Of a DNA stretch of 64,000 bases, positions 22,536 through 52,179 are shown piece after piece (the first letter of the stretch is position 1; every line of letters begins with the position of its first letter). The DNA lies in assembly GCA_910589485.1 (NCBI GenBank), contig CAJUSW010000010.1, positions 10,479-74,478 on the forward strand, in the 5' to 3' direction. The translations under genes and the position numbers were made by a program. The notes below the pieces were generated by a model. It had not been told where the DNA came from and made no database searches. It saw nothing but the letters and a program-made list of their open reading frames with translations. This DNA is from an uncultured Duncaniella sp. GTDB taxonomy: Bacteria > Bacteroidota > Bacteroidia > Bacteroidales > Muribaculaceae.

Positions 22536-22542
22536 TAAAATC

Positions 22543-36199: not shown

Positions 36200-37204
36200 T
36201 TATATCTGTATATTCAAGGCGGTTGTCACTCTGTCGAGCAATTCCTCTATCGACCCCACCTTAAGGCCATTCACAGTCATGCCATCCTGCCGGGCCTCGA
36301 TAACTACAGGGATACTGTCGTCCGAGGATATGGCAATACCTCTTCGCGTCAATGCTTTTTTCACCATATTGTATTCCACGCCATCTCCTGTAAGACGCAC
36401 CGACTTGTCGAGCCTATGGCATATCCTGAACAATCCGCTCTCGATGTCAAATGCCACACCGTCCCGGTGAAAATACCGGCTCATCTGGCCATTCAATGCC
36501 AGATCCTCAGGTGTTCCTATAGCCACACCATGCTCCTTATCTATCAGCCACACCTTATCGGCAATCTGTAGCGCAAGTTCAAGGTCATGTGTCGACAGGA
36601 ACACGGTCTTTGATTGCTCCCGGGCGAGCCGTTGCAGAATCTGCATTATCTCCACTTTGCTCGGATAATCAAGAAAAGCTGTGGGCTCATCAAGAAAAAT
36701 TATAGGAGTCTCCTGTGCGAGGGCCTTTGCTATCATCACCTTCTGCCGTTCTCCGTCGCTAAGAGTCTGAACCATCCTCCCTCGTAATCCTTGAATACCC
36801 ACCAGGGCTATGGCATCTTCCACAATCCTGTGGTCATAATCGCTCATGTGCCCCCAGAATCCGGTATATGGACTTCGCCCCATACCTACAAGTTCATCAA
36901 CCGTCATATTGGTTATGGTGAGCTTCTCAGTCAGCACTACACCTATCACCTTGGCTAACTCCGAATCAGAATACTGTGCCAAAGGCTTCTTCCCGATATA
37001 TATTTCACCTTTTACGGGAGGGAGAAATGCTGTCAATGTTTTCAGTAGAGTCGATTTCCCGGCTCCGTTCGGGCCGAGCAGACAGGTCAGTTCCCCGTCA
37101 TTCAACGAGGCGTTTATATTGCGCGTTATGACGGTAGTCTCTTTTTTATTGTGATAGCCTGTTGAGAGATCTACCACCCGTATGGTCTCTTTCCTGTTCA
37201 TCAC
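36200..37204 (-). CDS. ABC transporter ATP-binding protein (BtuD/FepC type)
   Basis: 334 aa. Walker A GPNGAGKST, signature LSDGERQ, Walker B IIFLDEPT. Confidence 0.9.
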   Translation of the reverse strand: MMNRKETIRVVDLSTGYHNKKETTVITRNINASLNDGELTCLLGPNGAGKSTLLKTLTAFLPPVKGEIYIGKKPLAQYSDSELAKVIGVVLTEKLTITNMTVDELVGMGRSPYTGFWGHMSDYDHRIVEDAIALVGIQGLRGRMVQTLSDGERQKVMIAKALAQETPIIFLDEPTAFLDYPSKVEIMQILQRLAREQSKTVFLSTHDLELALQIADKVWLIDKEHGVAIGTPEDLALNGQMSRYFHRDGVAFDIESGLFRICHRLDKSVRLTGDGVEYNMVKKALTRRGIAISSDDSIPVVIEARQDGMTVNGLKVGSIEELLDRVTTALNIQI

Positions 37205-38235
37205 ACCTCGCTTTTACGTTTGTTGAACAATACCCACATCACCACAGGCGCTCCCACTAAAGCTGTCACCGAATTTACCGGCAACGCGCCCTCAAATCCC
37301 GGCATTCTTGCTATTAGATTGCACAACAATGCCAATGACGCACCTCCCAGAAGCGACGCCGGCAGGATGGTCACATGATTGGATGTGTGAAACAATCCCC
37401 TGCATATGTGTGGCACCGCAAGGCCGAGAAATACCACCGGCCCGCAATAGGCCGTGACTACAGCCACCAATATGCCCGAGCAACCTATCACGAGCAGTCG
37501 AGCCCTCTTGATGTTCAGACCTAAGTTTCTCGCATAGGCGTCCCCTAAGAGTAACAGGTTCAAAGTCTTTATGAGAAAGAATGAGGTGGGCAACAGCACT
37601 AACATAAGAATGATGAATACTGACGTCTGACCGCCCGACACTCGCGAGAAGCTGCCCAGGCCCCATATCACATATGCGCGTATATCCTCCTCGGCGCTGA
37701 AAAATTTAAGCACACCGATAATCGCATTGGCTATATACCCTATCATTACTCCCATGATCAGCAGAGTCACATTTCCTCTCACCTTCTGAGCCACAAAGGC
37801 GATCAAGGCCATTATCAGCAACGCTCCGATTACAGCCGACAGTGTTATGGTCACCTCACCGATCACACCTAATTTACTTAACGCCACGCCACCGATACTA
37901 CCCGACAGCAACACCACACATGCCACCCCGAGGCTTGCTCCCGAACTGATTCCCAACACCGATGGCCCTGCCAGCGGGTTGCGGAACACCGTTTGCATCA
38001 GCAGTCCGCTCACTGCCAATCCTGCTCCGGCCATAGCCGCGGTGAGCGATTGGGGCAATCGCGATTTCAATATGATATTTGTCCAGATGATATTATCGCA
38101 CTTCTGCCCCATGAGTATCTGTATGATACTCTCCATGGGGATGCTCACCGAGCCTAACAGCAGGTTCAGTATAAAGAATACTATGATGGAGAATCCCAAC
38201 ATTATCATCAGGACAGCAGTTCTGCTCTTGCTCAT
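37201..38235 (-). CDS. FecCD-family ABC permease (BtuC-like)
   Basis: 344 aa, about 9-10 TM segments. GPSVLGISSGASLG and PVNSVTALVGAPV motifs. Confidence 0.9.
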   Translation of the reverse strand: MSKSRTAVLMIMLGFSIIVFFILNLLLGSVSIPMESIIQILMGQKCDNIIWTNIILKSRLPQSLTAAMAGAGLAVSGLLMQTVFRNPLAGPSVLGISSGASLGVACVVLLSGSIGGVALSKLGVIGEVTITLSAVIGALLIMALIAFVAQKVRGNVTLLIMGVMIGYIANAIIGVLKFFSAEEDIRAYVIWGLGSFSRVSGGQTSVFIILMLVLLPTSFFLIKTLNLLLLGDAYARNLGLNIKRARLLVIGCSGILVAVVTAYCGPVVFLGLAVPHICRGLFHTSNHVTILPASLLGGASLALLCNLIARMPGFEGALPVNSVTALVGAPVVMWVLFNKRKSEV

Positions 38236-39386
38236 TTTTTCAACAGATGATAATAACTTGGCTTATGATCAGGAAGAATATCCGGGTGGAACACATGTAT
38301 GAAGTCTGAGAGCACCACTTCAGGTTCAACCGGCATTCTCTCATAGAACGGCACTTCTTTCATGTTGCAGTATATCACGCCCTGATTCTTCCATGCGTCA
38401 AAATCGGTATACCTATTATCCTGCTCTTTAAGCACATTATAGTTATATTCGCCGTCGAAACTGTTTACAATTCGCCAGTAATCGGCATGGGCCGCATTGG
38501 TGTACACAGTCTCATAGTCAAGCGTGACGCCCCCCGATTCATTATTATCCTTCAGGAAATAATCTCCTCCGGCATCCCTGAACAGTTGGGCGAGAAAACT
38601 CTTCCCTCCCACAGCATACCAGTTTCCACCCCGCATCTCTCCGCTGAACACCGTGGGACGGTGGGCCACAGTGTCGACCATTGCCTTTAGGTCGTTGTAA
38701 CGCTTCTCTATCCCGGCAAATTGCTGATTGGCTTCAACCGTTTTTCCCGTGAGCAATCCTATCACTTTTATCCATTCTGCTTGTCCTAACGGGGAAAGTT
38801 CCTTATATCCCAAGTGAGGTATCATGGGAATGTCCACGTTGCGTATGGCATCATATCCTCCGCGCTTGAACGGTGATATGAATATCACATCGGGATTGAT
38901 GGCCATTATCACTTCGTTGTCAAAATTCCCCTCGATACCAATCTTGTGTGTCGTCCCGGCTTTCAGTTGCTCGTTCATCTTTTCGTTATGCAGATGTCGT
39001 GTGCTTGTGATCCCCACCACCTTTTCAGGAATATCGAGTTTAAGGAAGTTGGATAGCTGAAGTGACGTCATGCAGATTGCTGACTCGATAGGAATATTGA
39101 TACGGGTATATCCTTCGGGTAAATCTCCCTCATAATCCTTACCCGTAAGTACGAAATGGAATTTCTCGGCCTCATTGTTCTCCGGATCGTTTATATCGAG
39201 GAGTATTGCATCACCCCGATAGCTCACCTTGAAGCCCTGGGCATATGTGGGCCGAATCATGTTCAATGAATCTTCAACAATCGACGTGGATTCTGTTGAA
39301 TTACTTGCGCTGTGTCCCCCGCCACAACCTGTAACGATCATGACCGAAGCGATAGGTAGTATATATTTCAAAAACTTCATTTTCAT
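38232..39386 (-). CDS. periplasmic-binding lipoprotein of the ABC importer (BtuF / iron-siderophore-cobalamin class)
   Basis: 384 aa. Lipobox IVTGCGG. Operon position ahead of the permease and ATPase. Confidence 0.8.
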   Translation of the reverse strand: MKMKFLKYILPIASVMIVTGCGGGHSASNSTESTSIVEDSLNMIRPTYAQGFKVSYRGDAILLDINDPENNEAEKFHFVLTGKDYEGDLPEGYTRINIPIESAICMTSLQLSNFLKLDIPEKVVGITSTRHLHNEKMNEQLKAGTTHKIGIEGNFDNEVIMAINPDVIFISPFKRGGYDAIRNVDIPMIPHLGYKELSPLGQAEWIKVIGLLTGKTVEANQQFAGIEKRYNDLKAMVDTVAHRPTVFSGEMRGGNWYAVGGKSFLAQLFRDAGGDYFLKDNNESGGVTLDYETVYTNAAHADYWRIVNSFDGEYNYNVLKEQDNRYTDFDAWKNQGVIYCNMKEVPFYERMPVEPEVVLSDFIHVFHPDILPDHKPSYYHLLKK

Positions 39387-39721
39387 CAGTTTTCAGGTAT
39401 GTATATTATTTCTCCATTCTCGAGTTGGTAGGCTGTCCCTACTCTTCGTCCTTTTGATCCGGATGTCGGAGTCTCGGAATCGGACGGAGTGTATTTCTTC
39501 ACCTCGTTTCCCTCTTTTGTTATTATCTCCATATTATCGGCACCTGGATTCTTCACTATGGTAAAATCCTCCTTCGAGAAAATCTCACTCATATTGAAAT
39601 GCGTGACCACAGCGACCATCAATGCCACAGCAAAAACCATCGCCACGTCAAACAGATTGGTCAACATGCCCATGGGATTATCCCCCTCATCAGGCTCTGT
39701 CAGTATTGGATTATGCTTCAT
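39386..39721 (-). CDS. DUF2149-like single-pass membrane protein (ExbD-analog partner of the MotA/ExbB-like protein; HmuV-like)
   Basis: 111 aa. NPMGMLTNLFDVAMVFAVALMVA TM helix followed by a soluble tail. 4-nt overlap with the upstream gene. Confidence 0.65.
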   Translation of the reverse strand: MKHNPILTEPDEGDNPMGMLTNLFDVAMVFAVALMVAVVTHFNMSEIFSKEDFTIVKNPGADNMEIITKEGNEVKKYTPSDSETPTSGSKGRRVGTAYQLENGEIIYIPEN

Positions 39722-40308
39722 CGGTCGGTCAATTTATGGAATATGAACTCTAAAGCGTTCAGTGAACGCGCATAGAAACGTTGCCTCACCTGCAAGGTGG
39801 CCAATCCTATGCCGGCGACAAGCATACCCACTACGGTAGTCGCAAATGCCACCTGCATATTATATGCCATTGAGGCAATGTCTCCTGTAGCAAGTCCTAC
39901 CAGTGCCGGGCCCATAGGGATAAGCGTACCCATAAGTCCGAGCATAGGCCCGAACTTTATAAGGATTCTATTCTTGGAAAGCTCCTTTTGCACATCCACC
40001 TGAAAGTCAGCCAACGAATGTTCGCAGTACACGCGGTCATCCCTGTGCTTCATCATGTCGCAAAAGCACTTGACTACCGGCGAGCTATCCATCCCGTTCC
40101 ATTCCGATTGGGTCTCCACGAGCCGTTTCTGCCCGTAATTCTCCACCAACTGTTGTAGACTTGCCATCAGCCGTCGTTGCGTCATGTATTCGTTATAGAA
40201 TCCTATCGCTGTCAATATGGCTTTTATGAGCAAAAACAGCAGCATCAACACCACCGGAATAAGGAGTCCGTTGGATATAATGAATAATATGTCGGAAATT
40301 ATATTCAT
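39718..40308 (-). CDS. MotA/TolQ/ExbB proton-channel family protein (HmuU-like)
   Basis: Start moved to MNIISDILF (ATGA overlap with the upstream stop). Channel motif FGPMLGLMGTLIPM...AFATTVVGMLVAG. Confidence 0.8.
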   Translation of the reverse strand: MNIISDILFIISNGLLIPVVLMLLFLLIKAILTAIGFYNEYMTQRRLMASLQQLVENYGQKRLVETQSEWNGMDSSPVVKCFCDMMKHRDDRVYCEHSLADFQVDVQKELSKNRILIKFGPMLGLMGTLIPMGPALVGLATGDIASMAYNMQVAFATTVVGMLVAGIGLATLQVRQRFYARSLNALEFIFHKLTDR

Positions 40309-40805
40309 ACTGTACCGTAAATTATGATATAAACGAGTAGACTTATCAGTGATAATGTGTAGAGCCACATTCTATCGCATTTCATCCATCTTAGCACTGA
40401 AACGCCTCCGGTTAAAGCGACAGCCGTCACACTTGCCGCGATAAAGCTCACTGCCATGAAGTCAAGCCCTGCGACCATTCGGCTCATGCCCAACGACAGT
40501 AGGGCTACCGGATATCCGAGCATCAGCCCCGGATAGAACATCAATACTTTTTTACCCCTGCCATTGTAAAATAGATAAGCCATGAAAACGAGAATCTCGA
40601 TGAATCCCATCACAAGGATATTCTTGTCTCCAAGATAACCGAGAACCTCAGGCATCGAAAGACCGGTCACCCACATGGTTATCGTGTATGTGACAACAGC
40701 CCATACAATTCCCCACACCAGCGCCACTTCCCGGGGCATCAGTGCCATCTTCACCATACCAGTCAGGACTATTACAATTCCCGGGACAATCATTATGGCC
40801 ATCAT
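40305..40805 (-). CDS. small polytopic membrane protein (HmuT-like position)
   Basis: 166 aa, about 5 TM helices. 4-nt overlaps on both sides. Confidence 0.55.
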   Translation of the reverse strand: MMAIMIVPGIVIVLTGMVKMALMPREVALVWGIVWAVVTYTITMWVTGLSMPEVLGYLGDKNILVMGFIEILVFMAYLFYNGRGKKVLMFYPGLMLGYPVALLSLGMSRMVAGLDFMAVSFIAASVTAVALTGGVSVLRWMKCDRMWLYTLSLISLLVYIIIYGTV

Positions 40806-43800
40806 GCGCTTTTCCTCCTCCTTCTTTTAGTGGCTATTGCGAATATCGCTATCAAAAGCACAAGTACACAACCGGCTGTCACGATATAGGAGGATCTCTC
40901 TGATGTCATTGCCGACATCCCGCTGTACCGCTCCTCTTTCAGCACTTTGGCATCCCCCCTCTGGGCCGTTGCCTTTGAGATATTTTCAATATACCTGTCA
41001 GCCTTATTTTTATCAAGTCGCGACGCTGTAAACTCCTGGAGTTTTGCATTAGCGCATACGAATTCCGTGCATGGCGCACCATGCCGTTCCGTAAGTCGGG
41101 CATGAAGTTCAGCAGTGGCGTTCACCTGCTCATCATCGGCTTGCCAAAATCCTTTGCGGGCACTCTCAAGCATGGTTGCCGTCATCTCCTGCATTGCTGC
41201 GGGATTCACCCGCTCGAAATACTCCTCTATTCCCAATCCATTTATATCCTTGACATATACATCATATAGATCATCATAGATATTATCGGAAAGGGCGCTC
41301 GGACGTGTGGCGCTCCAGCCGAATATATTTCGGAATATCTCTCCAAACATTTGGGCTGTGGTTGCTTCCCCTTTCATGCGTTGCTTTATATATTCCGGAT
41401 TCAGGATAGTGGCCCGTGTCTCTACGGCTACAGCCTCCTTCGTGTCCTGCAAGCGTGGCACATACATGTTGCGGTAATCTGCCATGACGGCATCCGGCTC
41501 CTTGCCGTTAATTGATGTTGCCGCGAGGGAGAGGGCTCCGGTGAATTCATACACGTGGTCAAGTGATATGGGCCCCCATGTATTGCTTTGGCGCGGTTGC
41601 ACTATCATATCGGTATTTGAGATGGCCGCCTTGAACAGGTTCTTGTCCATCGCTCCCCAATGATCATCGTCGCCATACATGGCACACATATTATTGAGAT
41701 AACCGTCCACGAGCTCCTGGCGGTCATCCCACTCCCCCGAGCTTTCGGTGTAGCGCAACATACCGGTGCTGTAACCTGAATTGACAGGCCCGAACACTCT
41801 CATATTGGAGAGTTCACGTGCCCGCTGAGGCGATTCCCCCTTTTCTACAAGCTCCTTTTCCTGGGTGAGCGATCCTTCAGCCACAAAATTAGGGTAGATA
41901 TCATCCTTGCTGTTTGCCGCGAGAGTCACCGCATCAGTCAGCATCTTCAACCGTGATCCGGCGATATCGCGCAATTGACCCGATACCTGGACCATTATAT
42001 TGATGCGAGGTCTGCCGAGCTCGGCACTTGGAGTCAGTTTCAAATCCATGACACGCCCTTGCTCATCACGCACCGGCTCAACTCCAAGCATTCTTAATGC
42101 CTGGGCCACCGTGGCTCCTTGCGATGAGATGAATTCCCCGGCCCAGAATGTATAACTTATCTTGCGCGGATATTCCCCGTGCTTTGCATGATAATTCTTC
42201 AATGATTGTTCCGCCAGAGCCACTCCGTCATTCCAAGCCTTCGGCCCGGGAGTTGCCTCAGCATTTATGCTGAACATATTGCGCCCCATCGGTAGTACAT
42301 TTGGGTTTAACACAGGATCTCCACCGGGTGCCGGTCTCACCGGCACTCCGCTCAGTGCTCCCACCATTGCATCAATCTCTGCCCCTGCTGATTCCAAGAG
42401 TAAACGCCGGTATTTAATAGCGTCAGCCAACTCTCCGGAAGCATCCTTCCGGCCCGACATTACGGCCGTGATATCATTTTTTGCTCGTGGCAGATAATTA
42501 TGCGAGATAAACGAGAAGTCCTGCAACTCCTCCTTTGATATTTTCCCTCTTTCATGGTCTGCCTTAGCCCGGCTGTAAGCCAACGGATCGGCGGCTATGG
42601 CGATTACGCTTGTGAGCATCTCTGCGTCGGAGTATGGCTGGCCCATCACGTAGTATGCTCCTGTAATTTTTTCATTGGCGAGCTCCTCGACAAATGTATC
42701 CACTTTTTTCAGCTCATCGGCTGTGTAAGTCCCTCCGGCAACGGAATCAAGACCCAGATCCTTGTGGAAACCATATTGTATGATTCTGTTTTTAAGAGCT
42801 GAGGTATTTCTTGCAGGATTGGCTATCCCTTCGTGCAATTCTTCTATCAGGCTCGCATATTTTTGACGCATACCGCTTTCAACATATGGTGGGGTAAGAT
42901 GTGTCACCATCACCGCGTGGCTACGTCTTTTTGCAATGATCGCTTCTCCCACATTGCCGGTAGTATAGAAATAGAAGTGTGGACGATTGCCTATCAGCAC
43001 TTCTGCCCAGTCGGCCTGTGATAGTCCGGCATTTTTGCCTGGGGTAAACTCAAGGTTGCCGTGAGTGCCGAAATGTATCAGCGCATCTGCATCAAACTCC
43101 TTCTGCATATACAGGTAAGGCGCGAGATATGAATGTGGAGGCACCACTTCCGCGCCGTGCACGAGCTTGAAGTCATCATCCCCCAATGCCGATCGGGGTT
43201 GCGGGAATATAAATATGTTGCCATACTGAACTGCCGCGACAGCCATGCTGTCACCTCTCGCAAGCAGATTGCCTGGAGCTTTCCCGTAACGCTGTTCCAC
43301 CTCGGCATATTTCTCGGGCAACAACACCGCCTTGGCCCATTTCTCATACTCCCCGGCATCGATCCACAGCGGATTACATTCATCCATGAAATGCTCCTGA
43401 GCCGACGGTGCGTATGATCCCATCACACTGCCTTGCTCCATTATCTGCCGTTCAAACTCACTGATTGTGCCTGGCAACCCTTCGACATCATATCCTTCCG
43501 CTTTCAGTCGGCGCAGGAAATTGTAAAGCGACGGCACTACCTCCATTCCCGACGCAAGAAGCGCATCCTTTCCGGGTGTTTTAAAATACCCTATCGCTAT
43601 CTTTTTGTCCGAATTAGGCTTGCTCTTCAGCGTCATGAATCGGTCAAATTGCTCCATGAACGCATCCACTCTTTCCTTTTCGGGGGTATATAGCAGAAAT
43701 CCCTCCTCATTAGGATTCTGAGTGGATATGCACAGCGGGGCCATCCCGCCATCGATCTCGGGCACCACGATTCTCGCATTAAGTGTCCCCCCTCCCATCG

Positions 43801-44695
43801 GTTTATTCACATCAAGCCATTCCTCGCGGGGCTGTATGAGCGGGAATGGCATGAACAATGGAATCTGATTGTCATACGCCCAATTAATGAGCGAGTCGTT
43901 CCCCAGCCGACCCATGGGCAGATACACTATTGCATCCGGTTCAAGTGATCTGATCATCCGTGCACGCTGGCGTCCTGTAGCCGTCAATGGATACACGTTA
44001 TAACCCTTTTGGGTCAATCGTGAGATAAGTGTGTCGATATGCGCGCGGTTGTTCTCGACTGGGAATGTCACTCCCGATGCAAAAGCCACTCGCTTCCCGT
44101 CAGGATTATAAAGACCTTTCTTTTTCAGATATTCCGTAAGCTCCTCATGCTTTTTAAAATACTTCCCGGCCTCAAGATGATAATACATGTCGGAAGGCAT
44201 ATCCTTGGGCATATCATAACCGTTATCACCCATCAGTCGGGGTGTGGCTATGCTTCGCACGTATCGCAACAGATTGCGGTAATTGTCACGGCAAGGATTT
44301 GAGAAGTAGCGTTGCAGTACATCCGTCTGGACAGAATCGAGATTGTGGTTGACTACAAAACTGAAATTGCGCAGCGTGTTGGTGAATATCGCCACCCCCT
44401 TCTGTGCCGCTTTGTCAAGTGATTGTAACTGCACAGAGTCAAGATACAGGCCACGTCCGTACATCAGCACGGCATCATAATCCTCGAAACCGCCCGCTTC
44501 TTCCATTGATGCACACTCCACATCAATATGCCGGCTGTCATTATTGAGAACTATCTCAGCCGCCTGTGCCGGAAGTGGATTCACTACCAGTATCCTTGTC
44601 GGGCGGAACCATGTGTTGTACACTGCATATACACCGCATCCGACAGCCAATATTAGTATTATTGCCGGTATTAATTTCCTGACTCTTGACATCAC
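40802..44695 (-). CDS. membrane-anchored CobN/Mg-chelatase-family large subunit (HmuS-like)
   Basis: 1297 aa. N-terminal TM LIPAIILILAVGCGVYAV and C-terminal TM YIVTAGCVLVLLIAIFAIA followed by KRRRRK. CobN hallmark IHFGTHGNLEFTPGK. No AAA+ or vWA (CobS/CobT, ChlI/ChlD) partner is present in the window. Confidence 0.88.
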   Translation of the reverse strand: MMSRVRKLIPAIILILAVGCGVYAVYNTWFRPTRILVVNPLPAQAAEIVLNNDSRHIDVECASMEEAGGFEDYDAVLMYGRGLYLDSVQLQSLDKAAQKGVAIFTNTLRNFSFVVNHNLDSVQTDVLQRYFSNPCRDNYRNLLRYVRSIATPRLMGDNGYDMPKDMPSDMYYHLEAGKYFKKHEELTEYLKKKGLYNPDGKRVAFASGVTFPVENNRAHIDTLISRLTQKGYNVYPLTATGRQRARMIRSLEPDAIVYLPMGRLGNDSLINWAYDNQIPLFMPFPLIQPREEWLDVNKPMGGGTLNARIVVPEIDGGMAPLCISTQNPNEEGFLLYTPEKERVDAFMEQFDRFMTLKSKPNSDKKIAIGYFKTPGKDALLASGMEVVPSLYNFLRRLKAEGYDVEGLPGTISEFERQIMEQGSVMGSYAPSAQEHFMDECNPLWIDAGEYEKWAKAVLLPEKYAEVEQRYGKAPGNLLARGDSMAVAAVQYGNIFIFPQPRSALGDDDFKLVHGAEVVPPHSYLAPYLYMQKEFDADALIHFGTHGNLEFTPGKNAGLSQADWAEVLIGNRPHFYFYTTGNVGEAIIAKRRSHAVMVTHLTPPYVESGMRQKYASLIEELHEGIANPARNTSALKNRIIQYGFHKDLGLDSVAGGTYTADELKKVDTFVEELANEKITGAYYVMGQPYSDAEMLTSVIAIAADPLAYSRAKADHERGKISKEELQDFSFISHNYLPRAKNDITAVMSGRKDASGELADAIKYRRLLLESAGAEIDAMVGALSGVPVRPAPGGDPVLNPNVLPMGRNMFSINAEATPGPKAWNDGVALAEQSLKNYHAKHGEYPRKISYTFWAGEFISSQGATVAQALRMLGVEPVRDEQGRVMDLKLTPSAELGRPRINIMVQVSGQLRDIAGSRLKMLTDAVTLAANSKDDIYPNFVAEGSLTQEKELVEKGESPQRARELSNMRVFGPVNSGYSTGMLRYTESSGEWDDRQELVDGYLNNMCAMYGDDDHWGAMDKNLFKAAISNTDMIVQPRQSNTWGPISLDHVYEFTGALSLAATSINGKEPDAVMADYRNMYVPRLQDTKEAVAVETRATILNPEYIKQRMKGEATTAQMFGEIFRNIFGWSATRPSALSDNIYDDLYDVYVKDINGLGIEEYFERVNPAAMQEMTATMLESARKGFWQADDEQVNATAELHARLTERHGAPCTEFVCANAKLQEFTASRLDKNKADRYIENISKATAQRGDAKVLKEERYSGMSAMTSERSSYIVTAGCVLVLLIAIFAIATKRRRRKSA

Positions 44696-44760
44696 TTATA
44701 CAGTTTCTTAAGAGTGTGGTTGGATTCCTTAATATATAACATTTAGTGTGTTAACACACT

Positions 44761-45657
44761 CTAAGATTCACTTATAGCCGACGCTTTCTGCTTCGCGGCG
44801 TCTGTGACCGGAGCTTCCAAGGCTTCCTTGAGATGCTCGATATATATATCCTGGATTTCCGATACCTGGCCTAACCCTTCCATGACGGTTGACACTGTGA
44901 ATCCTGCTTTCTCAAACTCTTCACGCCATTCGCCGTCTATATCATTACGGGCATGGTCTCCGGCCACAAACATGAACGGCACGAGAGTGACCGATTTGTT
45001 CTTGTCGGCTTTCAGTCTGGCTAAAGTAGTCTCATATGTCGGATACCCTTCAACCGTGGCCACATGAAATGCCGGATTTCCATTGGCGGTGAACATATAA
45101 TCCATCTGTGAGTATATGGCATTTGCCGGTGTGGATGTTCCATGCCCTATCAATACCACTGCACCTTTCTTCTCGGTGGCTTTATTGTATCGGGCTGAAA
45201 GTATCCCGGCAACTTTTTCACAATCCTCTACTGAATACAGCAACGGACGGCCCACTCTGATCTCCTTAAAGAAGGGAGCCATCAGCTTGGCCTCACCCCT
45301 GAGCACCTCAGCCTCTATTCCGTCTATCACATTTGTGCTTTGCACCACCACGTGTGTGTATCCGTCGGCAGCCAAGCGGAGCAGAGCTTCCTGAGGCGTG
45401 GGTTTGGAAACACCCCTCTTTTTCATCCGGTTTATAATTATGCGTGACGTATAGGCTTCCTCCACCTTTATATCAGGAAATTTCTGGCGGACCTTTTCAT
45501 TTATTGCATCTATCGTGAGTGCACGTGTGTCATCGAATGTTGTCCCGAAATGCACCATCAATATGGCTGTCTTGTTCCCCGGGAGTTTACTTAAGTCCTG
45601 AGCCGAAATATTCATTATGCAAGCTAAGGCAAAGAGTAACGATATGATTCTTTTCAT
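44761..45657 (-). CDS. cbiK: CbiK-type sirohydrochlorin cobaltochelatase homolog with a cleavable signal peptide (periplasmic)
   Basis: 298 aa. MKRIISLLFALACIMNISAQD signal peptide. CbiK core AILMVHFGTT...LIGHGTS...VPFMFVAGDHA. Confidence 0.82.
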   Translation of the reverse strand: MKRIISLLFALACIMNISAQDLSKLPGNKTAILMVHFGTTFDDTRALTIDAINEKVRQKFPDIKVEEAYTSRIIINRMKKRGVSKPTPQEALLRLAADGYTHVVVQSTNVIDGIEAEVLRGEAKLMAPFFKEIRVGRPLLYSVEDCEKVAGILSARYNKATEKKGAVVLIGHGTSTPANAIYSQMDYMFTANGNPAFHVATVEGYPTYETTLARLKADKNKSVTLVPFMFVAGDHARNDIDGEWREEFEKAGFTVSTVMEGLGQVSEIQDIYIEHLKEALEAPVTDAAKQKASAISES

Positions 45658-45678
45658 GATAGTTAAAAGGAGAAATCC

Positions 45679-45702
45679 CCCGGGACACTGACTTGTCCCG
45701 GG
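45679..45702 (-). terminator. GC-rich intra-operon hairpin (attenuator or processing site candidate)
   Basis: 9-bp stem CCCGGGACA / TGTCCCGGG with a 6-nt loop, in the 73-nt gap between the DUF4374 gene and cbiK. Confidence 0.35.
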
Positions 45703-45730
45703 AGAATAATAATTTATACTGAGGTATTAC

Positions 45731-46999
45731 TTATTTCACGTCCTCCACTACTCTGATCTGCTCAAAATAGTAGCCGGAAGCCATTGTCGCGCCGAGAGAG
45801 GTCTGCCCGGTCTGAACATCATAAATGTATATCTGAGGTTTCTTGCCCTCTGCATCTACTCCGATATAGGCTTTGTGGTTGACATATGCCATTCGCGAAG
45901 AGAAACGGCCGCTGCTGTAAGCCAGTCGCTCGCCATTATACTTTATAGGTGAGCTTGTGGCCGCATTCAGGTCAAGCAAGGCATAGTAATGGCTGAAAGA
46001 ATCAATGCCGGTACCATACTGGTCGTCACGGGCATATCCTACGGCCTTGTTGCCACCTACATACATCACTGAAATCAGCTTGCCGTCCACCTTGAAGCCG
46101 TCATAGTTCTTATCAAATGTGGTCTGCCCGGCCGGAATCTTCAGCAGATGGCTGTGCTCGGTGCCATCTGCATCATCGGTCACACATGCGATATACAGGT
46201 TATTGTTGTCGTCAATGATAGTTGTGGTCTGGAGCAGTTCTCCGTAAGCTGTACCCACCATCTCGCAGTCAAGGAAGCAGGGAGTTGCGCTTTCCACATT
46301 CATTGTCGAGGGATCGATCACGGCTGTCATCATCGGAGTCACGCGCTTGCCACGTGCACCGCCTTTCTTGGCATAGTAGAAGTAGAACAGTTTGTTGTCC
46401 GATTTACGGTAGGTAAGGATACCCGATGTGGTGTATATCTCCGCACCCTCAGGCATGGTGAGACCGAGCGTACCCTCCGAGATTATAGTCATGTCATCAG
46501 CGTTGAGTTTGGTCCAGATGATTTTGGTGGCATCACCATTGGCTGCCATGATCAGGAGAGTTTTATCATCTATCCATGCGTGGGTGTACTTACGGGTCGC
46601 GAAGGTATTTGTCTGGAAACGGCGTTCCTTTATGACCTCGATCTGATTATTGGTGATCTTATACTTGGCGAAGCGGTCACCCGACACCGGCACCTGATAA
46701 TAGTAGGCGCCCTTGAGTATTGTCTCCAGCGAGAGTCTCGAGTTGACCTCGGTACCTACTCCTTGGAATGTGATTTCCGGTTGGTCAGCTTCGAGTGAGT
46801 TTACACTGCGCACAAGAGTCTTCACGTCGCGGCCCATGCCTCCGTGACGGTCGAGAGCAACCCACAGGTCAAAATGATAATCCTGGATAATGGAGGGATC
46901 CTCGGGTACGTTAGGTTCATCATCGTCCGAGCAACTTGTCATGCCGAAAGCAAGAAAGAGCGCCATGAAGGACGAGAGAAGAAATTTTACTTTTCTCAT
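45731..46999 (-). CDS. DUF4374-like beta-propeller surface lipoprotein (XusB-like, partner of the upstream TonB receptor)
   Basis: 422 aa. Lipobox AFGMTSCSDDDE. It shares motifs with the DUF4374-like fragment at 63327-64000 (IPAG.T.FD..Y, and P.IY near the C-terminus). Confidence 0.65.
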   Translation of the reverse strand: MRKVKFLLSSFMALFLAFGMTSCSDDDEPNVPEDPSIIQDYHFDLWVALDRHGGMGRDVKTLVRSVNSLEADQPEITFQGVGTEVNSRLSLETILKGAYYYQVPVSGDRFAKYKITNNQIEVIKERRFQTNTFATRKYTHAWIDDKTLLIMAANGDATKIIWTKLNADDMTIISEGTLGLTMPEGAEIYTTSGILTYRKSDNKLFYFYYAKKGGARGKRVTPMMTAVIDPSTMNVESATPCFLDCEMVGTAYGELLQTTTIIDDNNNLYIACVTDDADGTEHSHLLKIPAGQTTFDKNYDGFKVDGKLISVMYVGGNKAVGYARDDQYGTGIDSFSHYYALLDLNAATSSPIKYNGERLAYSSGRFSSRMAYVNHKAYIGVDAEGKKPQIYIYDVQTGQTSLGATMASGYYFEQIRVVEDVK

Positions 47000-47024
47000 T
47001 GTTGGTTGATGTTAGATATTATGG

Positions 47025-49376
47025 TTAGTTTATGAAAAGTCTGAACTTGGCGGCAAAACTCCGTCCCGGCTTCTGAAGCATATAATTATCATATGCGAGC
47101 CTGTCGAAGATATTGTTGCACTCAAGCGACACATTATATCGGTCGCTATGCCACGAATATGTCAATGACACGTCTGTGATATTCTGTGTCGGGATTTTAG
47201 CTTTGGTCGAGGCTGCCCCGAAGGCCTCCCAGTTAAGATAATACCAGTGTATATACTGATACGCCGCCCCCAGCCTCAGTACATCCGTCTTATCAAGCAG
47301 ATTACGGAATGTGTAGGATGCTTCCACGTTGCCGAACATCCATGGTCTGTTTGGCACACGGTTCTTGTACGTTGCCGATGGATTACCGTCGCTCTTATAC
47401 TTTTTCAGGTCGCGTGCGTCGCTCCAACTTCCGTTTACCGAGACCTGAAACCGGTTGCGCCAGAAATACGACAACTCAAAATCAAATCCCTTCACATCTA
47501 TTGCCGGCTCGTTGACATACTGCATCATCCCCTCGCGCTCCGACACCGTGGCGCGGATATAGTTCTGCACATGACGGATAAAGCCGTTCACCTCATAGCT
47601 TAACTGATGCATGCCTTCTCCGAAAAACCATGTTCCGAACACCCCCGCATTGTAATTGTTGCTTGTCTCAGGGCTGAGAGTAAGATTGGGATATACCGTG
47701 GTCCCGTTGCCAAGCAGCTCCCTCGATAACGGAAGTCTCACACTATGTTCATAGGATGCTTTTACTGCCACAGGATCACAGAATATATAACGGCTTCCCA
47801 CGCCTGCTCCCCAATAACTTTTGGTCGACTCGGCGTCGATCTTGTCCGAGCCGGTTATTGTAATGTCATCGCTCTGCTTTATGGAGAGCGTATTGATATA
47901 ATCCTTTATGAAATAGGATGTCTGCCACCGCTGGTTGAAGAACGATTGCGAATATGTTGCCGACACTATATGCTTTGTCACCACATCATTTGACGGCTCG
48001 AAGTACTGGTCTATTTCATCATGGCGGTCATTGCCTCGGCGGTTAAGCATATAATTCAGCGCAAACGTATGATGCTCGTTCAGTTCATAGTCCACTCCTG
48101 CATTCACAATCGTGAGTGGCCGTTTATACACCCTGATTGTTCTCGATTTGTTATTTAGCTCGTTACCCGACGACGGCATCCATGTCCCGTCCCACGAATA
48201 CTTGCGGAACGCCGTGTCCACCGTCTCGCTATGATCCCAAGTATGCGACAGATTCATCCTGGTGGATATCTTATCCCATCTCTTACTGTATCGGGCCGAT
48301 ACGTTATATGAATGGGAGTTCCTGCTGGCCTCGCCATACACCTTGTTCTGCATCGCTCCGGTCTGTATATCCTTGTCGAGCTTATTGTATGAGAATCCCA
48401 CAAAGAATTGGTCGGCCCACTTCACGTCGGTTACTCCCGCCTCTATCTGTCCGAACAGGGAACGATAGTCGTCATGAAACCGTCGTTTGTCGGTAAAGAT
48501 GTATTTATCCTCCTCTTCGCTCCACACTTCCACTCCCTTCATCTTGTAGTCGTTCTTGGAGTAATTTACGCTGAACGTCGGACGTATGGCCACCGATGTG
48601 CCGGGAATATAATACTGTCCTGATATTTCTCCGGTGTGAGTGCTGAACGAACCTATGCCGTATGAAACATCCAGATAATTCTGGCGCTTCTTTTTGGTCA
48701 CGATATTCACAGCTCCGCCCAAGGCATCCGAGCTGAGATACGATGGCACCACGCCCTTATATAGCTCCACCCGTTCCACCATATTGAGCGGAACATTATC
48801 CAATGTGAGTCCCGATCCTTTGCTTTCCAACGGCACTCCGTCAATAAAATACCTTATCGAGTTGCCCGACATTCCGTTGATGGTCAGATCGAAATCGGAG
48901 CCGGCTCCACCCTCTCTGCGCACTTTCACTCCTGCTGTACGGTCAACTATATCATTAAGCGTCACCATCTTGTTGAGATTGGGTGAGATCTCCACGGCAT
49001 TCACCGAGAATGCGCCGTCCTCAAGTCGCTTGGCCGTGCTTTTCCCATACACGCTCACCCCCTTGAGCGCCACAGCATCCTCATCAAGAACTATCTTGAT
49101 GGATCTGTCCTGCGTGAGCTTTACCTCAAACGTTGCCGGTTTATACCCTGTTGCTGTCGCAACCCCCTTGTAATCCCCGGCCGGTAGCTTCAGTTCAAAC
49201 ACCCCCTCGGCATCACTCATTACGGGCACCTTGCCGTTGCCAATAGTTATCGTCGCATACGGGATGGACTCACCCGACCGGTCAGCCACATTTCCACTCA
49301 GTTTGTACGTAGGAACGGCCGCCTGTATGTACAGGTGGCCGAGAAGAATCAGAAATAATAGGAAGCAATGCCTCAT
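47025..49376 (-). CDS. TonB-dependent receptor with N-terminal carboxypeptidase-regulatory-like domain
   Basis: 783 aa with a signal peptide. CarbopepD_reg-like LSGNVADRSGESIPYATITI, a plug domain, and a C-terminal barrel ending in FRLFIN. Confidence 0.9.
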   Translation of the reverse strand: MRHCFLLFLILLGHLYIQAAVPTYKLSGNVADRSGESIPYATITIGNGKVPVMSDAEGVFELKLPAGDYKGVATATGYKPATFEVKLTQDRSIKIVLDEDAVALKGVSVYGKSTAKRLEDGAFSVNAVEISPNLNKMVTLNDIVDRTAGVKVRREGGAGSDFDLTINGMSGNSIRYFIDGVPLESKGSGLTLDNVPLNMVERVELYKGVVPSYLSSDALGGAVNIVTKKKRQNYLDVSYGIGSFSTHTGEISGQYYIPGTSVAIRPTFSVNYSKNDYKMKGVEVWSEEEDKYIFTDKRRFHDDYRSLFGQIEAGVTDVKWADQFFVGFSYNKLDKDIQTGAMQNKVYGEASRNSHSYNVSARYSKRWDKISTRMNLSHTWDHSETVDTAFRKYSWDGTWMPSSGNELNNKSRTIRVYKRPLTIVNAGVDYELNEHHTFALNYMLNRRGNDRHDEIDQYFEPSNDVVTKHIVSATYSQSFFNQRWQTSYFIKDYINTLSIKQSDDITITGSDKIDAESTKSYWGAGVGSRYIFCDPVAVKASYEHSVRLPLSRELLGNGTTVYPNLTLSPETSNNYNAGVFGTWFFGEGMHQLSYEVNGFIRHVQNYIRATVSEREGMMQYVNEPAIDVKGFDFELSYFWRNRFQVSVNGSWSDARDLKKYKSDGNPSATYKNRVPNRPWMFGNVEASYTFRNLLDKTDVLRLGAAYQYIHWYYLNWEAFGAASTKAKIPTQNITDVSLTYSWHSDRYNVSLECNNIFDRLAYDNYMLQKPGRSFAAKFRLFIN

Positions 49377-49504
49377 CTCGGTTTGCTGCTAAAGTTTAGA
49401 ACTGAGGCAATATCACACAGCAAACCATACGCGATCCCTCATACTACTGGAGATCCAACGGTTGTTTTGTGGTAATATAACCCGAAAACTACAAAACTAA
49501 TATG

Positions 49505-49668
49505 TTGTCTTGGCAGGTCTCCTGACTTATCCTGCTCATCGGCGCCTTCCCATCGTTGTCGACAGTGGCATCTTGCCGGTGAGTTGTGGTAGGAATTACA
49601 GTAGCGGGTCTGTTCCGGATTCTCACCGGATTCCCTATTAATCGCGTCGCCGCGAACCAAAACGTGGC
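49505..49668 (-). promoter_or_regulatory. cobalamin riboswitch (copy 2, heads the 19-gene minus-strand train)
   Basis: The minus strand reads ...AATAGGGAATCCGGTGAGAATCCGGAACAGACCCGCTACTGTAA...GCCACTG...GGGAAGGCGCC...AAGTCAGGAGACCTGCCAA (B12 box). 163 of 164 nt are identical to copy 3. Confidence 0.9.
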
Positions 49669-49669
49669 G

Positions 49670-49677
49670 CAAAGATA
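49670..49677 (-). promoter_or_regulatory. candidate -7 promoter box (TAnnTTTG) for riboswitch 2
   Basis: The minus strand reads TATCTTTG directly upstream of the riboswitch. Confidence 0.45.
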
Positions 49678-49750
49678 AGACATTTTTCCTTCACCGACAA
49701 CTTATTTCAGAATTATATGGCCAATCACCCATTAACAGTGTTATAATATC

Positions 49751-49821: not shown

Positions 49822-52179
49822 TTAGAAATTATATGACACTGTTGCCATGAAATTTCGTGGTTTACCAAGTTTTGTCGCTGAGATAAAATAATGCTTGTTG
49901 AATATATTATTCACCACCACCGAAAGTGTCACATGAGACTTGATGGTATAATAAACACCTCCATCCACTATAAATCGGGCTGGATCATATACATTATTTA
50001 CAACACTGCTATATATTTTATCGGTGTAGTTACCGCTAAGATGAACTGATAGATCCTTCAACACTCCTCTGGGGACAGTGTAATCGGCATATAGATAGAA
50101 TGTTGTTCGGGGCACGCCTGTTGCTCGAAGATTTATCTGGCCATTCTCATCAAGAGTCACCCACGGCAAGCCTACTGCCCAATCCATATTGCTGGCCCTG
50201 CGACGGTAGTCCGACCATCCTACACCACCGGTCACCTTAAGGGTTGACCATGGATGGATTGTCACATCCATATCGAAGCCACGGGAATCATATTGGCCCA
50301 CTTGAGCCTGCACCGTCTTCTCGACCTGTTCACCATCCACATCTACCGGCATTTTGCCAAGATTCATCACCACATTTCTCTTCTTGATGAGAAACGCACT
50401 CGCATTAAAATCAAACAGGCGGTGCTCATAGCGCACTCCTACTTCAAACTGATCGCCACGTTCCGGACGATACACTTCACCGCCATCCATGTCGGGCATG
50501 AACTCCTTGCCGTTTCGGTCATAATATATATAGTTGGCATTATAGAACGTATTGTAAGGCTTAAAGAAGGAGGCGGCTGAAGCATATATCGACACTGACG
50601 GAATCGGTAGATACACCACTCCTGCTCGGTAGGTCAACGCGCTTGTCGAAACCTTGTTCCAGTCCGTGCGGGTTGCTTTGTCATAATGTTGTGTGCCGTC
50701 AGGAGTTTGGGCGGTGGCCCTGCGGTAAGTATAGGTGTCGAAACGTAAGCTGAGCATACCTTTCCAATGCTCATTTACATCTACTACATCTGTCACATAA
50801 AATCCATTGTTGAAGTTGCGTGAGATATTGGCGGCCGATACCTTGCAGTCCCACCAGTCCCGCACGTAATGAGGATCCTCTACCGGAATAATCTCATTCT
50901 TGCCCGGTCCCCACACATCTTCGTTGGCATAGCCGTTATATTGCACGAAATCAAAATATGTGGCAACCCATCCGGCCTTATATTTATGATTTATTCCATA
51001 CCATCCGTCAATGGATCCTGTCAGCTCAAGAGTATTACTCAGCGTCTTATGATCCGGATTGAAATTCAGAGGAGTCCCGCTCTTAAGTTCATCCAGGTTA
51101 GTGTAATACGTCTTTCCGCTACGGGTGTACTGATATTTGTAATCACCGGGTTCGGTGGATGTTACATAAGTCAATCCCTCTACGCAGCAATAGTCCAGAT
51201 CACTATGGCTGTACGAAATATGCTCCCGCAGTTTGAATTTCTCGTTAAACGTATGAGTATAAGTTGTAGCCACCTCCATCAGGCGTCTGCGCATACGGTT
51301 ATTGGCTATGTCGTTATAGACTGACTCATAATTGCATAGAGGATTTCTGGATCCGCTTGGGAGATAGATCTTGTCGGTACCCGCATAATAGATGTCTGCC
51401 GGCATTGTGGGAGCACCACCTATATCTGTTGTATATGAATCATCTGCACCGTTGATGCTTGCTTCCCAATAGCCATGATTTCCTATCTGCGAACTGAGCG
51501 CGAATAATCCCGACAGTCGGTTGGCATTCACCATGCGATATCCGTCGCCGTTGCTTGTATAGACATGCGCACGGTAATGCACCGGTCCGATAAGCTTACC
51601 GCCGAATCCGAATGAGGCATCCTTCTGCTTCCAGCTTCCATAGCTCACACTTCCGTTGGCCGTGAATTTATCTGTCGGTTTCTTGCGGATAATATTTATA
51701 ACACCGCCCATCACTGAATGGCCGGCAAGTACCGATGCCGGACCTTTGATGACCTCGATCGATTCAACTCCCGAGAGATCGCCGTAGGGAACAGTATTCC
51801 ACACTCGCTCATCTCTCACACCATCGTAGGCGATACCTACGTCATTTGATCCGCGGATGCTGAAACGCTGGAACTGGCCCAACTGATTTCCCGACATCAC
51901 TACTCCGGGGAGAAACTTCACGGCATCTTCCATGTTCACGATATGTTTTCTCCCCAATGTCTTTTCATCAATACGGCTGACGGTCATAGGTAGATATTTT
52001 AGAGGCATATCTATCCCCAGCAGTCCTACTGAATGTTCCTGTAGTGGTTTGACATTTGACACTGTTGTGACCACTTCTCCAAGCGAAATGGTATCCGACA
52101 TGGCATCAAGGCTGTCGGCCCGGCATGGGACGACAATCGCCACCGCCGTTAGGGCGGGCAATACAAATCTGACTTTCAT
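49822..52179 (-). CDS. TonB-dependent siderophore-type receptor
   Basis: 785 aa with a signal peptide. Plug motifs FLPGVVMSGN, IRGSNDVGIAYDGV and IEVIKGPASVLAG. C-terminal ATVSYNF. Confidence 0.9.
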   Translation of the reverse strand: MKVRFVLPALTAVAIVVPCRADSLDAMSDTISLGEVVTTVSNVKPLQEHSVGLLGIDMPLKYLPMTVSRIDEKTLGRKHIVNMEDAVKFLPGVVMSGNQLGQFQRFSIRGSNDVGIAYDGVRDERVWNTVPYGDLSGVESIEVIKGPASVLAGHSVMGGVINIIRKKPTDKFTANGSVSYGSWKQKDASFGFGGKLIGPVHYRAHVYTSNGDGYRMVNANRLSGLFALSSQIGNHGYWEASINGADDSYTTDIGGAPTMPADIYYAGTDKIYLPSGSRNPLCNYESVYNDIANNRMRRRLMEVATTYTHTFNEKFKLREHISYSHSDLDYCCVEGLTYVTSTEPGDYKYQYTRSGKTYYTNLDELKSGTPLNFNPDHKTLSNTLELTGSIDGWYGINHKYKAGWVATYFDFVQYNGYANEDVWGPGKNEIIPVEDPHYVRDWWDCKVSAANISRNFNNGFYVTDVVDVNEHWKGMLSLRFDTYTYRRATAQTPDGTQHYDKATRTDWNKVSTSALTYRAGVVYLPIPSVSIYASAASFFKPYNTFYNANYIYYDRNGKEFMPDMDGGEVYRPERGDQFEVGVRYEHRLFDFNASAFLIKKRNVVMNLGKMPVDVDGEQVEKTVQAQVGQYDSRGFDMDVTIHPWSTLKVTGGVGWSDYRRRASNMDWAVGLPWVTLDENGQINLRATGVPRTTFYLYADYTVPRGVLKDLSVHLSGNYTDKIYSSVVNNVYDPARFIVDGGVYYTIKSHVTLSVVVNNIFNKHYFISATKLGKPRNFMATVSYNF

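Follow-up and report, generated by a model that had tools for sequence, protein, structure and literature searches.

Gene content and organization of the locus

The 64-kb window analysed here (the whole stretch of 64,000 nucleotides, from contig CAJUSW010000010.1 of an uncultured Duncaniella species of the Muribaculaceae) carries on its minus strand a long string of genes that begins with a cobalamin riboswitch and a TonB-dependent receptor (TBDR), passes through an exported CbiK-type chelatase, a membrane-anchored CobN-like protein and a MotA/DUF2149 pair, and ends in corrin biosynthesis. By its gene content and the relationships of its proteins we assign it to the BtuS1-type operons of Bacteroidales, as their Duncaniella example. 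BtuS was proposed as a B12-regulated class of CobN-related proteins, the third such type, with a role in metalloporphyrin salvage (Rodionov et al. 2003, as cited in PMC6460266), two members of the family, BtuS1 and BtuS2, have been described in Bacteroides fragilis (Rocha et al. 2018, PMC6460266), with BtuS2 being the orthologue of HmuS, and Hmu-like operons preceded by a riboswitch have also been noted (Meslé et al. 2023, PMC10100974). The CobN-like protein of the window likewise lies in a riboswitch-preceded cluster with TonB receptors. Because the BtuS family and the riboswitch-preceded Hmu-like operons are published, the core of the finding is already on record, and the layout that a first-pass annotation of this DNA had called unusual belongs to a type described by Rodionov in 2003 (as BtuS), by Rocha in 2018 (as BtuS1) and by Meslé in 2023. 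What is new here is a clade within the HmuS radiation that has the HmuS cleft, lacks the Met-rich insertion of HmuS, carries an invariant replacement of its site-1 residues, and is accompanied by exported CbiKs.

The riboswitch at the head of the string (RF00174, 49495-49676; full length, 117.5 bits with the Rfam model) lies 118 nt upstream of the start of the TonB receptor gene (47025-49376), whose product has a Pfam CarboxypepD_reg (CarbopepD_reg_2) domain at its N-terminus followed by Plug and barrel domains. Next come a divergent DUF4374 surface lipoprotein of 422 aa with a lipobox ending in GMTSC (45731-46999), a GC-rich stem-loop (45676-45705), an exported CbiK-type class II chelatase whose signal peptide ends in NISA/QD (44761-45657; PF06180, 265 bits), and the CobN/HmuS-like, BtuS1-type protein of 1297 aa (40802-44695; PF02514, 910 bits). 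These are followed by an HmuT-like polytopic inner-membrane protein of 166 aa with five to six hydrophobic segments (40305-40805), an HmuU-like channel subunit of the MotA/TolQ/ExbB family with three transmembrane (TM) segments (39718-40308; PF01618, 39.6 bits), and an HmuV-like DUF2149 protein that crosses the membrane with one TM helix (39386-39721; PF09919, 110.6 bits). The open reading frame (ORF) listed for the channel subunit is 39718-40368, and its true start is likely to be at 40308, where there is an ATGA overlap with the upstream stop. A BtuFCD-type (type II) ABC importer, composed of a Peripla_BP_2 lipoprotein, a FecCD permease and an ABC_tran ATPase, occupies 36200-39386, and the genes for CbiH-CbiC, CbiE-CbiT, CbiG-CbiF, CbiJ-CbiD, CbiA, a PduO-type adenosyltransferase, CobQ, CobD and CbiB (all recognized by Pfam/NCBIfam models) fill 24834-36184. 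The first-pass annotation had the order from receptor to importer right, gene by gene and on the correct strand, as it did the placement of the module under a B12 riboswitch and in line with corrin biosynthesis; the profile searches it had suggested, with PF02514, PF01618, PF09919 and PF06180, all gave matches.

From the CobN-like gene to CbiB, neighbouring genes either overlap by 1-40 nt or stand no more than 15 nt apart, and the BtuFCD-type genes overlap by 1-4 nt among themselves and with the DUF2149 gene. The chelatase, transport and corrin genes thus form one translationally coupled string, and the genes under the 49495-49676 riboswitch extend over about 24.5 kb. The CbiB end of the string meets a convergent plus-strand unit for nucleotide-loop assembly (20709-24856), which comprises a further RF00174 riboswitch, PepSY_TM, CobU, CobT, CobS and CobC.

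The Cbi genes of the string begin after the cobalt-insertion step. Neither CbiL, nor a uroporphyrinogen methyltransferase (SUMT/CysG), nor a CbiK or CbiX without a signal peptide is present in the 64-kb window, which also holds no other cobalt transporter, and no CbiL-like methyltransferase was found in any of the 80 related loci described below; CbiL being absent from the cluster, a gene lying elsewhere would be required for the pathway to be entered at cobalt-sirohydrochlorin. A complete cobamide pathway occurs in only 0.6% of Bacteroidetes, and Porphyromonas gingivalis is missing the steps of precorrin-2 synthesis (Shelton et al., PMC6461909). The binding protein of the importer carries a lipobox, and searching the sequences of the Protein Data Bank (PDB) with it returned no informative match.

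Distribution of BtuS1-type operons and contrast with hmu loci

Scanning one genome per species yielded 80 related loci with CobN-like proteins that are 55-81% identical, all of them from Bacteroidales or from Bacteroidales-looking bins; riboswitches were detected in these with a covariance model built from the three riboswitches of the window, and genes by tblastn with the window proteins. The order riboswitch, TBDR, lipoprotein, CbiK, CobN-like protein, HmuT, MotA, DUF2149, (BtuFCD), CbiHC, CbiET, CbiGF, CbiJD is kept across Muribaculaceae, Bacteroides, Prevotella, Phocaeicola, Parabacteroides, Dysgonomonas and Tannerellaceae, with BtuFCD being absent from the cluster in many Bacteroides loci. 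A riboswitch on the same strand precedes the CobN-like gene, typically at a distance of about 4.9 kb, in 55 of the 63 loci whose upstream sequence is long enough to judge, and Rfam's own model confirms it in the six loci checked.

As a control we examined 80 canonical HmuS-type loci from metagenomes, all of which show hmuY-R-S-T-U-V content and none of which contains CbiK, BtuFC or Cbi genes; there is no upstream riboswitch in any of the approximately 51 of these hmuYRSTUV loci that could be evaluated. A survey of this sort had been proposed in the first-pass annotation, and its outcome, 55/63 against 0/~51, makes the riboswitch link a property of the clade and not a peculiarity of the window. 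The arrangement is far beyond chance and recurs in most of the 80 related loci, so that the layout, which that annotation had considered unusual, is instead the rule for this clade. A single riboswitch match was encountered among the 80 hmu loci (L121, 14159-14381); it lies about 1.8 kb downstream of hmuS and presumably heads an unrelated neighbouring B12-regulated gene.

The CobN-like protein has an HmuS-type cleft and a rebuilt head/neck site

Hydropathy analysis places one TM helix near each end of the CobN-like protein (residues 8-26 and 1271-1289), and since both termini are positively charged (the C-terminal tail is KRRRRK) the bulk of the protein is predicted to be periplasmic. A PF02514 domain held between N- and C-terminal anchors with a periplasmic body is also the fold and topology of HmuS, which removes iron from heme (PMC12583661), and the best PDB match is HmuS of Bacteroides thetaiotaomicron (9d26, 1136 bits). 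The alignment with 9d26 breaks into two blocks and leaves out HmuS residues 754-919, which contain the Met-rich insertion (domain IV); in the clade this segment has 24-29 residues with no more than one Met, as compared with 54-397 residues in most HmuS-type representatives.

The catalytic-site and site-1 (head/neck) residues of HmuS were defined by Nath et al. 2025 (PMC12583661). The window protein retains H545, E584, D1046, H1047, E1050, S905, Q1036, S1037 and W1040, the equivalents in B. thetaiotaomicron HmuS being His538, Glu577, Asp1208/His1209 (of the SLDH motif), Glu1212, Ser1067, Gln1198, Ser1199 and Trp1202; in the definition of the HmuS family, site 2 is marked by the motifs HFG(T/A)HG and LSLDHxxEFMGG. 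The clade-specific changes in the cleft are Ser1014 to Ala and Met1214 to Thr. We therefore class the predicted catalytic cleft as HmuS type, not CobN/ChlH type. At the head/neck heme site, by comparison, Met79/His254/Gln299 of HmuS are replaced by Arg81/Met261/Ala307, and these replacements are invariant in 11 clade members, with the flanking Gly and Gly-Arg retained, while 80 of 80 hmu-type control loci have Met/His at the head/neck positions. The window protein departs from the HmuS family definition in lacking the site-1 ligands, the Met-rich insertion and an hmuYRSTUV operon with HmuY, and in being about 42-43% identical to the nearest HmuS-type representatives where the definition has at least 50% to B. 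thetaiotaomicron HmuS. On its predicted site-1 heme-handling features it falls outside HmuS, and it keeps the catalytic machinery.

An exhaustive homologue search over 50%-identity representatives, with residues 1-1200 as the query, gathers the whole window clade into one 50%-identity cluster (P0116) that sits amid HmuS-like proteins of 1360-1640 aa at 38-43% identity. In a neighbour-joining tree, built without bootstrap and used for coarse placement only, the clade is nested in the HmuS radiation beside Bacteroidales HmuS representatives. The first-pass annotation had suggested a phylogeny as a check, with tight clustering among heme-specific HmuS orthologues counting against a separate function; in the tree the clade lies inside the HmuS radiation, at about 42-43% identity to the nearest HmuS-type representatives and with site 1 replaced.

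The protein is not described by the aerobic cobaltochelatase CobN, having a periplasmic topology and no CobS/CobT partners, and scoring 577 bits with the best NCBIfam CobN model (cut-off 1248), which is below every CobN and BchH cut-off. Pfam/NCBIfam scans of the 64-kb window detect no AAA+ or vWA chelatase partner anywhere, bearing out what had been proposed earlier for the surroundings of the CobN-like gene.

Members of a further cluster, P0121, which includes Parabacteroides segnis, have a Met at position 254, an Ala at position 299 and a riboswitch upstream, and still have an HmuY-domain gene and a Met-rich insert. The P. segnis-type locus L081 (1359-10399) consists of RF00174, a TBDR, an HmuY-domain protein, the CobN-like protein, HmuT, MotA and DUF2149, and its CobN-like protein of 1418 aa has Pro/Met at site 1 and a 134-aa insert with 10 Met; P0121 and L081 appear to stand midway in evolution between hmu operons and those of the BtuS1 type. 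A different setting is seen in locus L082 (1926-11957), where a basal CobN-like protein (P0186, 1289 aa) is encoded among five radical-SAM/SPASM genes, one of whose products has a B12-binding domain, together with a PqqD-like gene and no MotA or DUF2149 in the locus.

CbiK proteins of the clade carry export signals

The best PDB matches of the window CbiK are periplasmic CbiKP of Desulfovibrio vulgaris (2xvx, 152 bits), CbiK of Salmonella enterica (1qgo) and FetB of P. gingivalis (9b86, 134 bits), and the resemblance to the P. gingivalis iht protein that had been named in the first-pass annotation is apparent in the sequence, as matches to FetB/IhtB and to CbiKP. Alignment with 2xvx shows that the metal-binding His/Glu/His motifs GHG, VEG and GDHA are conserved. 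The score with the NCBIfam CbiK equivalog is 200 bits (cut-off 400) and, because there is a signal peptide, this is not the canonical cytoplasmic enzyme.

Every CbiK with an intact N-terminus in the 80 loci has a hydrophobic N-terminal extension, with the exception of L080, in a tally that takes in the second copies of Bacteroides as well as some longer versions that are lipoproteins; CbiK copies in BtuS1-type loci are thus predicted to be exported. A start-codon artefact was considered as the source of the signal peptide and was rejected because the extension recurs in almost all of the approximately 70 CbiK copies. Some Bacteroides loci (L030, 15828-18758; also L031, L034, L069 and L071) have a second TonB receptor and a second CbiK, again with a signal peptide, between DUF2149 and CbiH-CbiC, and no BtuFCD at that position.

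The best homologue of CbiK encoded by P. gingivalis is FetB, an extracytoplasmic protein; it has chelatase activity with cobalt and manganese but not with iron, and is required for formation of Mn-protoporphyrin (PMC13065792). Extracytoplasmic metal exchange on tetrapyrroles hence has an experimental precedent in Bacteroidales.

The outer-membrane receptor and lipoprotein are not Hmu-like

The nearest NCBIfam model for the receptor is the catecholate-siderophore receptor MxcH, at 430 bits and below its cut-off, with the hemin and B12 receptor models giving about 90 bits; pairwise scores are 38-63 bits with HmuR-type receptors as against 951 bits with the Bacteroides counterpart. The lipoprotein is unrelated to HmuY. 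Because neither protein is like HmuR or HmuY, only the S-T-U-V core of the locus is Hmu-like, and the Hmu-like reading of the first-pass annotation does not extend to the outer-membrane pair. The same annotation had named the lipoprotein as a DUF4374 protein: the lipobox is present and the family is supported through homologues, but a direct Pfam scan gave no DUF4374 match even at E<=1. Since close homologues (those at hand are all at least 80% identical) carry a precomputed PF14298 match, and the protein shows similarity (BLASTP, E=3e-7) to a bona fide DUF4374 fragment that the far end of the window encodes, it is a divergent member of DUF4374. A PDB search with its sequence was uninformative.

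A TBDR, a DUF4374 lipoprotein and a PepSY_TM protein make up the Xus-type architecture for uptake of metal chelates, of which PepSY_TM, a reductase-like family, is the usual third component. In the window the TonB receptor gene is followed by that of the DUF4374 lipoprotein, and PepSY_TM lies in the adjacent riboswitch unit; in seven other loci (L003, L031, L036, L039, L040, L043 and L069) PepSY_TM is inside the operon, between the lipoprotein and CbiK or the CobN-like gene. The outer-membrane pair resembles the TBDR/DUF4374 pair of Xus systems.

Riboswitches, a conserved hairpin, and neighbouring units

Rfam identifies three cobalamin riboswitches in the window. One of them (54191-54372, 110.8 bits) heads the unit immediately upstream of the BtuS1-type string and on the same strand, which encodes PepSY_TM (52227-53801) and a TonB receptor (49822-52179), the whole unit spanning 49822-54372. 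The aptamers of the two units (49510-49678 and 54206-54374) are 98% identical over 169 nt, in the same orientation and 4696 nt apart, and their near identity marks them as a recent duplication that heads two consecutive receptor units.

The stem-loop between the lipoprotein and CbiK genes (45676-45705) has a 12-bp stem, CTCCCGGG...CCCGGGAG, with eight GC pairs, a minimum free energy (MFE) of -24.3 kcal/mol and a T-rich tail. The stem CTCCCGGG/CCCGGGAG recurs at the same intergenic position in most of the Muribaculaceae loci (within L001-L041), with loops that vary and a following T-run that is not present in every one. It may act as an attenuator, or as an RNA-stability or processing element, and because it is conserved between these two genes, control of the downstream genes by the riboswitch depends on read-through.

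Three PepSY_TM proteins are encoded in the window (52227-53801 on the minus strand, 20929-22020 on the plus strand, and 62069-63319 on the minus strand); two of the genes are the first after a cobalamin riboswitch, one of these heading the CobU-CobT-CobS-CobC unit, and the third makes a Xus-like pair with the typical DUF4374 protein encoded beside it (63327-63968). Elsewhere, at 54585-55759 on the minus strand, a 270-aa ORF covers only positions 132-426 of the RtcB profile, with an overlapping 130-aa ORF just upstream; this rtcB may be split or frameshifted, and it adjoins a WYL/WCX-domain regulator (55887-56897).

HmuT, MotA and DUF2149 proteins and the question of energy coupling

At the HmuT position an ORF of 160-236 aa is present in 61 loci, and a profile built from these matches the HmuT of hmu-type loci with E values of 5e-51 to 4e-11; it does not match DUF2162, which occupies the equivalent position in locus L090. 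With the HmuT profile finding canonical HmuT, and with the match of the CobN-like protein to 9d26, the S-T-U-V core is homologous to that of hmu loci, and the hmuSTUV-like composition that had been recognized in the first pass stands. DUF2149 has an Asp (Asp25) within its single TM helix, as do ExbD and TolR, and an identical database protein from an uncultured Duncaniella sp. is named DUF2149; PDB sequence searches with MotA and with DUF2149 were uninformative.

In all clade members for which sequence is available the trio lies directly beside the CobN-like gene, as it does in HmuS-type loci, and MotA and DUF2149 also flank CobN-like proteins that are only about 30% identical (P0202 in L089, and P0223 in L090 and L091). 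A DUF2149 homologue search aimed at archaea listed only close Muribaculaceae relatives. The conserved neighbourhood supports the prediction, made from gene association, that CobN-like large subunits without AAA+ partners are functionally tied to a proton-driven stator. Coupling of the chelatase to the proton motive force is possible, and is not separable from ordinary ExbBD-like energizing of the receptor.

That second role, in which MotA and DUF2149 are dedicated ExbB/ExbD paralogues that power the TonB receptor and the CobN-like protein works without energy input, is a serious contender that we place a little short of an even call, and it bears on the energy question only. It corresponds to the published view of HmuU/V as ExbB/ExbD equivalents serving the receptor HmuR (PMC10100974), it agrees with the ExbD/TolR-type Asp in the DUF2149 helix, and purified HmuS converts heme with NADH alone, without its U and V partners (PMC12583661). 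A TonB receptor is also present in all four sampled loci that carry the pair beyond the Bacteroidales hmu and BtuS1 groups (L086, L087, L089 and L090). Against it, the pair is always beside the CobN-like gene, down to clades of about 30% identity, and stays with that gene when the receptor is elsewhere (L006, L086 and L090); no TonB is encoded in the operon; the two TM helices of the CobN-like protein could dock on a stator; and class I chelatases otherwise need an AAA+ motor, of which there is none.

Loci L090 and L091 show a different corrinoid-related cluster. In L090 (1-12138), and alike in L091, a TBDR, DUF2162, MotA, DUF2149, a BtuF-CbiZ fusion, the CobN-like protein (about 34% identical to that of the window), CbiK and a ThiC-like radical SAM protein are encoded in this order; there is no riboswitch in the sequence at hand, the locus beginning inside the receptor gene.

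Proposed function and alternatives

The features read directly from the DNA are the gene content, the topology signals, the operon structure, the riboswitch linkage, the residue changes of the clade and the export signals of the CbiKs. From these, and from family membership, we infer a B12-repressed, envelope-spanning system for cobalt/tetrapyrrole metal exchange and salvage in the periplasm, which would feed the corrin pathway; we hold this reading to be evenly balanced between right and wrong, with its substrate, catalytic direction and energy coupling being inferred parts of it. When B12 is scarce the riboswitch would permit expression of the gene string. The Xus-like TonB receptor and the DUF4374 lipoprotein would then bring a metal-tetrapyrrole or a metal chelate into the periplasm, where the HmuS paralogue, with its dechelatase cleft and rebuilt head/neck site, and the exported CbiK would act on it, most likely taking out one metal and inserting cobalt, and so exchanging the metal of a salvaged tetrapyrrole. 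The BtuFCD-type importer would move the product to the cytoplasm, and the co-transcribed Cbi enzymes, from CbiH onward, would turn it towards a cobamide. HmuT, MotA and DUF2149 would form a proton-driven stator-like unit that energizes either the CobN-like protein, there being no ATP in the periplasm, or the receptor. What recommends metal exchange and salvage is the combination of a clade-wide riboswitch, coupling to the Cbi genes, universal export of the chelatase, and an HmuS-type cleft with a rebuilt site; specificity of the CobN-like protein for cobalt or a corrinoid would be plausible.

Several observations weigh against this reading. In B. fragilis a btuS1 single mutant has no clear phenotype, and a btuS1 btuS2 mutant is defective on heme as sole iron source (PMC6460266), which points to some role in heme-iron use. 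The catalytic cleft differs very little from the HmuS one, and a porphyrin would suit it no less well than a corrinoid or isobacteriochlorin; the cluster is without CbiL; and the nearest named family of the receptor is a siderophore, not a tetrapyrrole, receptor. The strong conserved hairpin splits the receptor and lipoprotein genes from the rest and could attenuate transcription.

Of the other explanations, the one that survives best, which we nevertheless regard as unlikely, is that the locus scavenges cobalt for de novo corrin synthesis: the receptor pair would import a complex of cobalt, for example with a chelator or a porphyrin or as an unusable corrinoid, from which PepSY_TM and BtuS1 would release Co2+, CbiK would serve as a periplasmic cobalt binder, and the BtuFCD-like proteins would be a Co2+ importer of the CbtJKL type. 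Control of cobalt importers is typical of B12 riboswitches, and Co2+ is what the BtuF-like CbtJKL system transports (PMC7689651). The similarity of the receptor to siderophore receptors, the Xus-type architecture of TBDR, DUF4374 and PepSY_TM (with PepSY_TM in or beside many of the operons), and the lack of another cobalt transporter in the 64-kb window all agree with scavenging. It would, however, leave unexplained why a CbiK that is catalytically intact by its motifs is retained in the periplasm, and no cytoplasmic cobaltochelatase that could use the imported Co2+ is found in the window or the related loci; the binding protein gives no informative match, and many Bacteroides loci have no BtuFCD within the cluster.

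A second heme-iron system, in which BtuS1 works as HmuS does (heme to protoporphyrin IX and Fe2+) and the adjacency to B12 genes is incidental or reflects a shared tetrapyrrole economy, seems to us improbable. No protein of solved structure is closer than HmuS (1136 bits), the cleft residues are of its type, the clade nests in its radiation, and the poor growth of the B. fragilis double mutant on heme as sole iron source (PMC6460266) is readily accommodated. A heme-iron role does not account for a riboswitch in 55 of 63 loci as opposed to none of about 51 hmu loci, the absence of HmuY and of an HmuR orthologue, the replacement of all three site-1 side chains and the lack of the Met-rich insertion, the constant presence of an exported cobalt-type chelatase, or the translational coupling into Cbi genes, and the btuS1 single mutant is without a significant defect (PMC6460266). 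A more specific periplasmic swap, in which BtuS1, powered by a MotA/ExbD-like proton motor instead of an AAA+ ATPase, strips iron from an imported tetrapyrrole (siroheme being favoured), CbiK inserts cobalt and BtuFCD imports the product, fits the parts list but is doubtful in our view, and its product, cobalt-sirohydrochlorin, would need a CbiL encoded elsewhere.

Implications

Gut, rumen and oral Bacteroidales very commonly carry operons of the BtuS1 type. Thousands of sequences fall into single 90%-identity clusters of the CobN-like protein, for which the routine annotation as 'cobaltochelatase CobN' is very likely wrong. The signature Arg81/Met261/Ala307, together with the lack of the Met-rich insertion, separates heme-type HmuS from B12-type BtuS1 in annotation, and the signature and the contrast between hmu and BtuS1 loci make function more testable and supply point mutants. 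The function of these operons bears on the sharing of cobalt and tetrapyrroles in the gut, and on the old puzzle of why Bacteroidales such as P. gingivalis keep the corrin pathway without means to make the tetrapyrrole precursor; a siroheme swap, if true, would let tetrapyrrole-auxotrophic Bacteroidales make corrinoids. If it is true that the proton-channel pair drives the chelatase-like subunit, it would add a new means of driving chelatases of class I.

Comparison with known systems

Among the closest known systems is the BtuS1 operon of B. fragilis (BF638R_2501-2512), which similarly has a periplasm-facing anchored CobN-like protein in a cluster regulated by a B12 element and containing TonB receptors, the likeness to BtuS1 itself (BF638R_2504) being one of gene size and published operon description. 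The cloned B. fragilis btuS1 fragment implies a protein of about 1320 aa, and the Bacteroides ORF in locus L030 has 1319 aa. The operon described here differs in its Muribaculaceae host and in having BtuFCD inside the operon. With hmuYRSTUV, as represented by B. thetaiotaomicron HmuS (9d26) and by P. gingivalis Hmu, the locus shares the homology and order of S-T-U-V, the membrane topology, and the catalytic dyads and cleft, whereas HmuY, an HmuR orthologue, the Met-rich insertion and the site-1 ligands are missing, and a riboswitch, an exported CbiK, BtuFCD and Cbi genes are present that are attached to none of the 80 hmu loci.

The relationship to the cytoplasmic chelatases CobNST and ChlHID lies in the PF02514 large-subunit fold, the HFGTHG motif and the His/Glu dyad; here the large subunit is periplasmic, has no AAA+ or vWA partners, and has MotA and DUF2149 as neighbours in their place. 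An exported CbiK-family chelatase is shared with iht/FetB of P. gingivalis and with CbiKP of D. vulgaris, and iht adds a TonB receptor and a type II importer to the resemblance, although the window CbiK, unlike that of iht, has a plain signal peptide without a lipobox and is tied to a CobN-like protein and Cbi genes. The outer-membrane pair and its frequent PepSY_TM partner are held in common with XusABC xenosiderophore uptake, from which the operon is set apart by control through a B12 riboswitch, by a highly divergent lipoprotein, and by coupling to chelatases and corrin genes.

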